Shown here one piece after another: positions 18,001-21,000 of a DNA stretch of 64,000 bases. This stretch comes from Escherichia coli (GTDB lineage Bacteria; Pseudomonadota; Gammaproteobacteria; Enterobacterales; Enterobacteriaceae). Position 1 is the first letter of the stretch, and every line of letters begins with the position of its first letter. The stretch is from assembly GCF_003334315.1 (NCBI RefSeq), contig NZ_QOWR01000015.1. One strand, given 5' to 3'. Made by a program: the position numbers.

Positions 18001-21000
18001 TATTTAACCTATCAATACAAACTCAACGATGACGAGGTTTTGCAGGCATTACGCCGCTTGCATGAATCCGGCGCGCTGACCACCGTGCACCCGGAAAATG
18101 ATGCGGCTATCGCCAGCAAGCGGGCGGAATTTATCGCCGCAGGGTTAACCGCGCCGCGCTATCATGCCTTGAGTCGCCCTCTGGAATGCGAAGCGGAAGC
18201 CATCGCCCGCATGATTAACCTGGCACAAATTGCCGGTAACGCCCCGCTCTATATCGTGCACCTGTCTAACGGCTTAGGTCTGGATTATCTGCGTCTTGCC
18301 CGTGCGAATCACCAGCCAGTCTGGGTTGAAACCTGCCCACAATATCTCCTGTTGGACGAACGCAGTTACGATACAGAAGATGGCATGAAGTTCATTCTTA
18401 GCCCACCGCTGCGTAACGTACGCGAGCAGGACAAACTGTGGTGTGGCATCAGCGATGGTGCGATTGACGTGGTGGCAACCGATCACTGCACCTTCTCGAT
18501 GGCTCAACGCCTGCAAATTTCTAAAGGCGATTTCAGTCGCTGCCCAAATGGCTTACCCGGTGTGGAAAACCGCATGCAGTTACTGTTTTCCAGTGGCGTG
18601 ATGACGGGACGTATAACACCGGAACGCTTTGTTGAATTAACCAGCGCAATGCCCGCCAGGTTGTTTGGCCTGTGGCCGCAAAAAGGATTATTAGCGCCCG
18701 GTTCCGACGGCGACGTGGTGATTATCGACCCACGTCAGAGCCAACAAATTCAGCATCGCCATCTCCACGACAACGCCGACTACTCGCCATGGGAGGGTTT
18801 TACCTGTCAGGGCGCGATTGTCAGAACCTTATCCCGTGGTGAAACGATTTTCTGTGACGGCACCTTTACAGGCAAAGCCGGGCGAGGTCGTTTCCTGCGA
18901 CGCAAACCGTTTGTCCCTCCCGTGCTCTAACCACTGCCAGGGATCTATACACAATCAAGAATGATGAGTGAGGAAAAATGAGTAAGAAAATTGTTCTCGC
19001 CCTGGGCGGGAATGCGCTGGGCGATGACCTGGCCGGGCAAATGAAAGCGGTAAAAATTACTTCTCAGGCAATTGTTGATTTAATTGCCCAGGGACATGAA
19101 GTTATCGTCACTCATGGTAACGGGCCGCAGGTGGGCATGATTAACCAGGCCTTTGAAGCTGCCGCAAAAACTGAAGCGCACTCGCCAATGCTGCCGATGT
19201 CTGTCTGTGTTGCATTAAGCCAGGGTTATATTGGTTACGATCTACAAAACGCTTTAAGAGAAGAACTGCTTTCTCGGGGCATTAATAAACCTGTAGCAAC
19301 GCTGGTTACTCAGGTCGAAGTCGACGCTAACGATCCGGCATTCCTCAACCCGACCAAGCCGATCGGTTCGTTCTTTACCGAGCAAGAAGCAGAGCAACTG
19401 ACAAAACAGGGTTACACTCTGAAAGAAGATGCTGGTCGCGGCTATCGCCGTGTTGTTGCCTCGCCAAAACCGGTTGATATCATTGAAAAAGAAACGGTTA
19501 AAGCTCTGGTAGATGCAGGTCAGGTGGTGATCACCGTTGGCGGTGGTGGTATCCCTGTTATTCGTGAAGGTAACCATCTGCGTGGTGCCAGCGCGGTTAT
19601 CGATAAAGACTGGGCCAGCGCCCGTTTAGCAGAAATGATTGATGCCGATATGCTGATCATTCTGACTGCGGTAGAAAAAGTGGCCATTAACTTCGGTAAA
19701 GAGAATGAACAGTGGCTCGATCGCCTGTCATTAAGTGATGCTGAACGCTTTATCGAAGAAGGTCATTTTGCGAAAGGTTCTATGCTGCCTAAAGTGGAAG
19801 CTGCCGCCTCGTTTGCTCGCTCTCGCGCAGGTCGTGAAGCACTGATTACCGTATTGAGCAAAGCGAAAGAAGGGATTGAAGGCAAAACAGGAACGGTGAT
19901 TTGTCAGTAATTTAAAGGCCGGGTGGGTAATACCATCCGGCCAAAGATTGTCAAGTAAGTGCGCTTTGTTGATGCCGGATGCGGCGCGAGCGCCTTATCC
20001 GTCCTACAAAACATCGCAAATTCAATAGATTGCAATGCACTTGTAGGCCTGATAAGCGTAGCGCATCAGGCAATTTGGCGTTTGTCATCAGTCTCAGGCC
20101 GGGTGGGTAATACCATCCGGCCATTTTCATTTAAGCCACTTCCAGCACTTCTTTTGTCGCTTTCACGCCCTGATGCATCAACATCATTAACGCCTCAAGT
20201 ACGCCGCCGCCAATCGCCCGGGCTTTATCAGAAACGCTGGTGAAATCAGCGGTTTCACCACGAGGATCGATATCACCAATTTTAAAACCACCAACCACTG
20301 CCAGGCCGTCGTTCAACAAGCCACGCACCATCCCCGTCAACGGTGCTTTAATTTCATGCTCACCAATCCAGGCAATCACATCGCCCTCTTTCACCAGATC
20401 GCCTAATTTCACGTTGGATCGCATAATGCCTGCAGCAGGAGCACGGATCACCCGTCGGGTGGTATGCCCCATAATATTGCCAGGAACACCGGTATTCTCC
20501 TGCGCACAACCAGAGTAAATCACCTGACCGAGCCAGTGCCCGCGATTTGTTTCAATTACCGCATGACAATCCTTCCCAGCAGTAAAGCCCGGCCCAAGCG
20601 CGATTGTTACTGGTGCCATATCTGCCCGCGTTCCCAAATTCTGTTTCGCCAGAATAGCGTCCACCACGCAAAGCGGTTTCAGTTCATCAAGCAATGAACA
20701 GGCGGGATCTACCATCACAGGAATGAATCCGCGTTCGGTAAGTTTCATCGCTTCCGCAGAGCTGGTTGCCAGGCGAGCAGTGACGCCTTCGACCGTCATT
20801 TCGCCATCGAACACGGCCTGGGCAAACGCCACGGTACAACGAATCACTGTCGGTTTTTCCACTTCCAGCATGATCACTTTAAAACCCGCATGATACAGAC
20901 GTAGCGCCACACCACTGGCGATATCTCCCGCACCGCGAATCACCACCAGCTGGTGTCCGGAAGGATGAGAAGGTTTCATCATCAGCCCACCCGGCGCGTT

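Follow-up and report, generated by a model that had tools for sequence, protein, structure and literature searches.

A putative BIME-1 insertion footprint between yqeA and yqeB of Escherichia coli: duplication of a two-way terminator hairpin

Why should two identical hairpins enclose repetitive extragenic palindromic (REP) sequences between two genes that face each other? The question is raised by a 64,000-nt stretch of Escherichia coli DNA (assembly GCF_003334315.1, contig NZ_QOWR01000015.1; termed the window, by whose positions all coordinates are given), in which such an arrangement fills the space between yqeA (arcC) and yqeB. The earliest interspersed repeats discovered in bacteria were REP sequences and bacterial interspersed mosaic elements (BIMEs), and about 40 years on their spread and their location behind genes are still debated. 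In the initial annotation, the cluster at 19915-20125 was described as a compact bidirectional terminator/insulator, with the same hairpin closing both convergent transcription units. The allele and paralogue comparisons reported here suggest a different origin: with a probability of approximately 85%, the region represents an insertion footprint, left when a BIME-1 landed in a two-way terminator hairpin and duplicated it.

Exactly two copies of the 26-mer GGCCGGGTGGGTAATACCATCCGGCC are contained in the window, both on the + strand (19917-19942 and 20097-20122); the two identical hairpins of the initial annotation are thus real, and their limits had been placed correctly to within one or two bases. 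No further match with up to three mismatches is present in the window, and dinucleotide shuffles give an expectation of 0.00. One more identical base on each side extends the match to a 28-bp direct repeat (19916-19943 and 20096-20123) with a spacing of 180 bp, each copy of which constitutes a hairpin with a 10-bp stem and a 6-nt loop (as + strand RNA −22.6 kcal/mol, z of about −5.5 to −6, with a single G.U pair; −16.7 kcal/mol as − strand RNA, in which the G.U position becomes an A.C mismatch).

Comparison with 5,426 complete E. coli genomes, in 5,167 of which the locus was found, revealed two alleles. Approximately 70% of the complete genomes (including O157:H7, UTI89, SCEC020026, Nissle-type strains and O111:H8) are exactly 180 bp shorter at yqeA-yqeB and possess a single hairpin; these are the strains without the REP insertion with which a comparison had been proposed, and they display the simpler state. 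Their 40-bp spacer consists of the yqeA stop codon, TTT(A/T)AA, the hairpin GGCCGG(G/A)TGGGTAATACCATCCGGCC, the tract ATTTTCATTT and the yqeB stop codon. Of the 5,426 genomes, 1,646 contain the linker of the insert, each at one place, and in 1,627 of these 1,646 the 152-bp insert is 100% identical. Because the empty allele contains exactly 180 bp less and a single hairpin, the K-12 state is, as judged from the alignment, the empty allele plus one BIME-1 and a duplicate of the whole hairpin. A 32-mer of the hairpin was detected once or twice per genome, exclusively on chromosomes; the possibility that the hairpin is a dispersed repeat or a part of the element was rejected, given that it does not exceed two copies per genome and that the hairpins differ between loci.

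The empty allele resembles a textbook bidirectional intrinsic terminator, with an A-tract, a GC-rich stem-loop and a T-tract accommodated in 40 bp. Its hairpin in UTI89 has a perfect stem and was scored as terminator-like on both strands, and that of O157 on the + strand only, owing to an A.C mismatch. The K-12 allele differs in being split, with one of the two tracts at each hairpin copy, so that in the window no single hairpin has both the A-tract upstream and the T-tract downstream of it. The features of the window allele are as follows (gene names taken from the RefSeq annotation of the identical K-12 sequence):

18978-19910, + strand: yqeA/arcC coding sequence, carbamate kinase-like; stop codon TAA at 19908-19910 (open reading frame list, RefSeq)
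19911-19915, no strand: TTTAA, remnant of the A/T tract left of the presumed original terminator (sequence, empty-site alignment)
19916-19943, + strand: direct-repeat copy 1 (28 bp), the left hairpin; stem 19917-19926/19933-19942, loop 19927-19932
19944-20095, + strand: BIME-1, one complete unit, the inserted DNA (152 bp; allele and paralogue comparison)
19944-19973, + strand: left terminal (A) motif with a degenerate copy of the terminal inverted repeat CAGATTGTTGACAAAG (family consensus)
19974-20007, + strand: Y-type REP, ending in CCTAC (pattern match; invariant columns in the paralogue alignment)
20008-20042, no strand: L linker with an IHF-consensus-like site ATTCAATAGATTG at 20020-20032 (pattern match)
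20043-20071, − strand: Z1-type REP, inverted, beginning with GTAGG on the + strand (pattern match; invariant in paralogues)
20072-20095, + strand: right terminal (B) motif ending in GCGTTTGTCATCAGTCTC, the right terminal inverted repeat (paralogue alignment, family consensus)
20096-20123, + strand: direct-repeat copy 2 (28 bp), the right hairpin; stem 20097-20106/20113-20122
20124-20132, + strand: T-tract TTTTCATTT of the presumed original terminator, overlapping the yqeB stop codon (20131-20133) by two bases
20131-21756, − strand: yqeB coding sequence, XdhC/CoxI family, selenium-dependent molybdenum cofactor biosynthesis; convergent with yqeA

The REP units and the convergent gene order noted initially were both found as described: Y and inverted Z1 lie between the hairpins, and the carbamate kinase-like gene that closes the ygeW-ygeX-ygeY-hyuA-yqeA cluster faces yqeB/yqeC, annotated as selenium-dependent molybdenum cofactor genes. 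The insert itself is an ordinary, long-catalogued BIME-1 (such REP-IHF-REP units are also named RIB or RIP elements). It comprises a Y and an opposed Z1 REP, an L linker with an IHF-like site, and similarity over the full length including the A and B motifs; the predicted IHF site ATTCAATAGATTG agrees with WATCAANNNNTTR at eight of the nine specified positions, and the linker can be aligned to the family consensus AAATTCAATATATTGCA. Where the insert is missing, the 152 bp are best matched by a paralogue at another locus, extending from position 1 or 2 to position 151 or 152 with 84-90% identity, and the limits of a family consensus (84 copies from six species, aligned end to end) coincide with those of the insert. 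The terminal inverted repeats CAGATTGTTGACAAAG and GAGACTGATGACAAAC agree at 12 of 16 positions in the family consensus and at 9 of 22 in the window copy. CCTAC and GTAGG face the linker, and in the predicted single-strand fold the two halves pair into one long hairpin. Y and Z1 REPs, an L linker and an IHF-type site correspond to the published definition of BIME-1 (PMC3333891, PMC1187871), and presence or absence of whole BIME-1 units from strain to strain is mentioned in PMC1187871, which refers to Bachellier 1997.

For the stretch of MG1655 that is equivalent to 19911-20130 (3,012,394-3,012,613), RefSeq annotates no feature. An Rfam scan of the region gave only sub-threshold matches, and the hairpin is explained by no RNA family: the small RNA model ES036 (CssrF) was matched on the L linker (20008-20050, + strand; 36.3 bits, gathering score 37.6) and appears to reflect BIME-1 linker sequence, and naRNA4 was matched partially on the Y REP (19968-20004, − strand). 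In metagenome contigs of the locus, the right hairpin copy contains a 1-nt deletion (GGCCGGG-GGGTAAT) in five cases and a substitution in one (L094, L096, L098, L113, L116, L109), and the 200 bp upstream differ from the window at three to five positions; divergence between the copies has begun in some lineages. Apart from partial REP matches near 49.9 kb, the window yielded no further BIME-1 copy. Another REP cluster, at 49815-49995, follows a + strand open reading frame (stop codon at about 49807-49809) and appears to be BIME-2-like, made up of a degenerate Z2 unit, a Y in inverted orientation and a second Z2; by eye, it has no flanking hairpin direct repeat.

The arrangement at yqeA-yqeB recurs at other BIME-1 loci. 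Among the first four paralogues considered, three (pitA-uspB, satP-mog and gloC-aspC) possess a local, partly decayed terminator-like hairpin on both sides. In a broader survey, one genome per species was scanned for a Z1-plus-B-motif pattern, which yielded 77 loci from E. albertii, two E. coli lineages, E. whittamii, two other Escherichia species and three Pseudocitrobacter; after the element ends had been set by the consensus and orthologues and arrays had been removed, 37 independent single-copy loci of Escherichia and Pseudocitrobacter remained. The 45 bp to the left of each element were aligned to the 45 bp to its right, with all mismatched left/right pairings as controls. Flank scores averaged 13.5 (median 16) in comparison to 6.2 in the controls (99th percentile 11); the similarity exceeded the 99th percentile of controls at 20 and the 95th at 24 of the 37 loci (Mann-Whitney p = 2e-13). 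The same Z1/B motif of E. coli type was also encountered on a 184-bp contig labelled Bacillus coahuilensis m4-4 (NZ_ABFU01000103.1, L054), most likely a case of Escherichia contamination.

In the 21 clear loci whose repeats were measured (the window included), the repeat is 16-30 bp long (median 22) and can be folded into a hairpin in every instance (mean −13.8 kcal/mol). It abuts the right end of the element in 18 of 21 and on the left side is separated from AGATTG by a single base, the element's own first C, in 13 of 21. An A-rich tract precedes the left copy in 16 loci and a T-rich tract follows the right copy in 18; the ends of the repeat are equidistant (within 1 nt) from the ends of the maximal palindrome in 16. 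Since loops and mismatches appear in the same order in both copies, the repeats are direct and not inverted. Over all 37 loci, a stable hairpin adjoins at least one end of the element in 33 and both ends in 22, with much less structure 70 nt away. According to these alignments, the hairpin-BIME-1-hairpin footprint is common to most of the BIME-1 copies checked.

Further pairs of occupied and empty alleles support the same interpretation. The empty ymdF-rutG allele (ATCC 25922, O157; L091, L093) contains a single hairpin, CACCGCCGGTTACCCCGGCGG, with TTTTCT behind it; hairpin-BIME-1-hairpin is found instead in a divergent E. coli, and K-12-like strains have the same structure with the element reversed (L092 versus L029), which to judge from the sequences are two independent insertions in opposite orientations at one hairpin, each having duplicated it. 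At pitA-uspB, occupied in 1,942 genomes, the empty allele reads AAAA-CGAGCGGGTCAGTTTACTGGCCCGC-TTTTTTT with a single hairpin. The right copy of the occupied allele is identical to the empty-site hairpin, and the left copy, already devoid of a T-tract, has also lost its 4-nt loop TTTA (L005 380-400 versus L117), consistent with relaxed constraint on a copy no longer able to terminate. The fdnI-yddM locus exists in empty, one-unit and two-unit alleles, the last of these being hairpin-BIME-hairpin-BIME-hairpin in K-12-like strains such as 9FA. For the zapB locus (L028), no such pair was obtained, the left flank being unconserved in the E. coli collection. E. coli 1424KP carries at fdnI-yddM (L121 250-960) an insertion sequence (IS) of the IS200/IS605 family, with annotated tnpA, in the T-tract at the 3' foot of the hairpin used by BIME-1; the hairpin is not duplicated there.

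Taken together, the loci compared establish the main properties of the presumptive integration events: the target is a palindromic terminator-like sequence, the duplicated segment is its hairpin, the length of the duplication follows hairpin size, the deduced breaks are symmetric about the dyad and both orientations occur. On the evidence of the allele and family comparisons, the ancestral yqeA-yqeB spacer very probably held a lone GC-rich hairpin between an A/T tract (left) and a T-tract (right), i.e. a bidirectional intrinsic terminator. The 152-bp BIME-1 would have integrated at this hairpin with the two strands broken on opposite sides of it, symmetrically about the dyad, and gap repair would have left a full hairpin on each side; the resulting 28-bp target-site duplication would owe its length to the hairpin and not to the enzyme. 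The breaks may have been structure-directed, with one cut per strand at matching positions at the base of an extruded hairpin or cruciform, after which the element would have been joined and the single-stranded hairpin gaps filled.

As for the agent, TnpA_REP of E. coli K-12 (RAYT) recognizes REP hairpins and cuts single-stranded DNA nearby, leaving a 3'-OH and a 5'-phosphotyrosine; it has been proposed to act on both BIME strands, and neither integration by a RAYT nor an integration step or footprint has been established beyond the cleavage of REPs in vitro (PMC3333891). This domesticated, IS200/IS605-like HUH tyrosine transposase might act once per strand on the near-palindromic element, and the observed product would result if the 5' end of each element strand were attacked by the 3'-OH of the matching target strand at the foot of the hairpin. 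RAYT/TnpA_REP is the leading candidate, at somewhat less than even odds; a DDE-type enzyme or a replication-based route is possible as well. With similar reserve, it may be proposed that BIME-1, and perhaps REPINs generally, integrate by a mode not previously described, in which a terminator stem-loop is the target, both strands are cut at its foot, probably by TnpA_REP, and the whole hairpin is duplicated. The C^T site as a strict rule for the junctions was rejected, since the left copies keep zero to four T residues.

Several points weigh against the insertion reading or parts of it. The IS200/IS605-type HUH transposases, to which RAYTs are related, normally act without target duplication (PMC3333891, PMC2817692); the junctions do not lie uniformly at the C^T cleaved by TnpA_REP in vitro, the breaks falling 0-4 nt into the T-tract; and 5' and 3' overhangs are indistinguishable from sequence alone. 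A clear duplication is absent at 13-17 of the 37 loci, which decay or a different insertion mode could explain. No paralogue of the insert exceeds about 90% identity, and its linker variant was seen at no other place in the 5,426 genomes or in the metagenome scan, which is odd for a recent copy-and-paste event. The polarity rests on the allele distribution and on distant outgroups, and the empty allele would be restored by an exact deletion from one 28-bp repeat to the other. Finally, the consequences for termination described below are predictions only.

With reversed polarity at this locus, hairpin-BIME-1-hairpin would be old in E. coli, the single-hairpin alleles would have arisen by repeated precise deletion between the 28-bp repeats, and the insertion with duplication would merely have occurred earlier; this is regarded as unlikely. 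Slipped-strand or RecA-independent deletion acts readily on perfect 28-bp repeats separated by 152 bp. Variable segments flanked by direct repeats are treated in PMC2884548. The flanking haplotypes of the carriers include some that are about 2% apart, a poor fit to a young single insertion, and SCEC020026 lacks the insert despite an ArcC protein identical to that of K-12. A near-identical donor copy is likewise absent: a 29-mer of the linker had 23 matches among metagenome contigs, all at yqeA-yqeB, and a 46-mer matched one place per carrier genome among the 5,426 genomes. Loss of the donor, import of the allele from another lineage or a change of sequence in the course of transposition could each be the reason.

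The near-uniformity of the insert, together with the identity of the two hairpin copies in the carriers (read as a sign of a young insertion), argues against the deletion scenario, in that an insertion older than the phylogroups should have diverged. Furthermore, the representatives of B2, E and B1 are all empty, and contigs with YqeB at 83-89% identity have spacers of 43-103 bp with a single unrelated hairpin or another REP pair and never BIME-1; these outgroup contigs are Logan/ENA assemblies whose hairpins are not homologous to that of E. coli, so that they are informative on the absence of BIME-1 only. One of them (L087 3627-3729, YqeB 89% identity) contains a different inverted REP pair, GCCGCTGGCGACGC...CTTATCGGGCCTAC / GTAGGTCCGATAAG, and its sequence indicates that this spacer was colonized independently by another REP type. 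An insertion with duplication of the whole hairpin is consequently held with high confidence and a recent, single event at yqeA-yqeB with moderate confidence; under either polarity, the structure began as an insertion footprint.

A second alternative, judged distinctly unlikely, derives the hairpin copies from recombination or replication, by Campbell-type integration of a circle composed of BIME-1 and a hairpin, by unequal exchange, or by palindrome-primed template switching at a stalled fork. It draws on the existence of [hairpin-BIME-1]n-hairpin arrays (L061, L068, L082, and the two-unit fdnI-yddM allele). In Escherichia sp. MOD1-EC7003, the hairpin-BIME-1 unit occurs five or six times in tandem, at periods of 167-182 bp (L061 11500-12413, with a period of 182 bp five times; L082, L068, L069, L079), and the same 16-nt spacer hairpin, AGGCCGAAC(C/T)CGGCCT, accompanies BIME-1 at several loci of this strain (also L065), which suggests that hairpin and element sometimes spread as a unit or that this hairpin is a favoured target. 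Such arrays are expected from insertion with duplication, in which the target is copied anew each time and direct repeats become available for unequal exchange. A circle would carry only the hairpin of its home locus and could account for re-integration and arrays, but not for the first arrival at more than 20 differing hairpins; the two ymdF-rutG insertions of opposite orientation both duplicated the resident hairpin, and the ends of the element share no homology with the targets that could guide template switching.

What, then, does the arrangement mean for the two genes? Its interpretation as a compact bidirectional terminator/insulator fits the other allele, i.e. the single hairpin in a 40-bp spacer, TTTAAA-hairpin-ATTTTCATTT. 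The hairpins of the window are terminator-like as had been stated; that the same hairpin closes both units was not supported, in that the gene-proximal copies have no U-tract. On the + strand, the yqeA-proximal copy 1 is followed by AAAGAUUG (tail AAAGATTG), and on the − strand the yqeB-proximal copy 2 is followed by UGAGACUG (tail TGAGACTG), both without a U-tract. Copy 2 on the + strand, followed by AUUUUCAUUU (tail ATTTTCATTT), is the sole site in the region that passed the intrinsic-terminator scan. On the − strand, copy 1 has the tail TTTAAATT but an A.C mismatch in its stem and failed the scan; the TTTAA remnant provides the tail UUUAAAUUA on this strand, which is used by the − strand terminator call in UTI89. 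In each direction, the tract is kept only by the far copy, and the insertion in all appearance split a bidirectional terminator into two one-sided halves.

With no U-tract left at the hairpin nearest to each gene, intrinsic termination would be expected to be efficient only at the far copy; both 3' untranslated regions (UTRs) would be longer by 180 nt and would overlap across BIME-1 by about 200 nt. The near copies and the REPs would at most act as pause, attenuation or RNA-stabilizing structures and may block exonucleases; the overlap RNA as one molecule is predicted to be able to form an extended composite stem through pairing between arms of the two hairpin copies. For yqeA and yqeB, no entries are contained in the consulted Term-seq supplements of Adams 2021, and a text search with both gene names and "terminator" gave nothing useful.

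That the hairpin pair and the REPs constitute a selected, purpose-built terminator/insulator in which each hairpin closes the adjacent gene is hardly probable. The hairpins are very stable and the genes convergent, and according to a 2026 preprint REPs can attenuate transcription and stabilize upstream mRNA, convergent pairs with REPs being more highly expressed (10.64898/2026.03.23.713779). The arrangement is nevertheless absent from about 70% of E. coli genomes, U-tracts are confined to the distal copies, and the same architecture recurs with unrelated, locus-specific hairpins at at least 20 loci as an insertion signature; moreover, one copy is decaying at older loci (the loop loss at pitA-uspB) and, by the 1-nt deletion in some contigs, also here, and this decay speaks against selection keeping two copies. 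The chance that the repeat is a coincidence or an assembly artefact is practically nil, as the shuffles predict none and the same structure is present in about 1,640 independently assembled genomes and 23 metagenome contigs.

The yqeA-yqeB locus is a clean, probably young example of a footprint that bears on how BIME-1 elements integrate and why they do so at gene ends. The footprint constrains integration to a terminator-hairpin target, dyad-symmetric breaks, duplication of the whole hairpin and either orientation, and it supplies natural pairs of occupied and empty alleles for experiments. Each insertion would convert a two-way terminator into two one-way halves 180 bp apart, with longer, overlapping 3' UTRs as the expected result for convergent genes; it is in this manner that about 30% of E. 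coli strains, among them K-12, differ from the rest at yqeA-yqeB, with similar polymorphisms at pitA-uspB, fdnI-yddM and ymdF-rutG. If integration at the hairpin foot is true, it would explain the location of BIME-1 at the 3' ends of genes, and every insertion would create a second target, seed [hairpin-BIME-1]n arrays and rewire both 3' UTRs.

In comparison with known systems, the element of the window agrees with BIME-1 in its REPs, its linker, its length of about 150 bp and its extragenic position at 3' ends of genes, and shows no difference in the element as such. A full-text literature search gave no account of terminator-hairpin duplications flanking BIME-1; key papers of the 1990s were outside its reach, and an earlier description is possible. 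The duplication footprint is new on the condition that the older literature does not contain it; if it was described there, the locus is an ordinary annotated BIME-1. The nearest published remark concerns REP dimers of other phyla "inserted within small palindromes" (Di Nocera et al., PMC3733652), with no terminator duplication described. With the REPIN/RAYT system, the element shares the inverted REP doublet, the GTAG/CTAC tags and the long single-strand hairpin; the IS200/IS605 mode, in contrast, involves no duplication and insertion beside a short motif, whereas a whole hairpin of 16-30 bp is duplicated here at 20-24 of 37 loci.

MITEs (miniature inverted-repeat transposable elements) are similar in their short non-coding length, imperfect terminal inverted repeats (for BIME-1, at the level of the family consensus), flanking direct repeats of the target and occupied/empty alleles. 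In MITEs, the duplication is short and of constant length, as dictated by a DDE transposase (PMC3184786). The BIME-1 duplications differ in that they vary from 16 to 30 bp, track the size of the target palindrome and are dyad-symmetric. We know of no autonomous IS that shares the terminal repeats of BIME-1, and no search was aimed at one. Class C bacterial group II introns reportedly home to terminator hairpins (Robart, Seo and Zimmerly 2007). These introns, and the IS200 at fdnI-yddM, likewise use a terminator stem-loop and insert at its 3' foot or T-tract; they leave a single hairpin, whereas BIME-1 leaves two.

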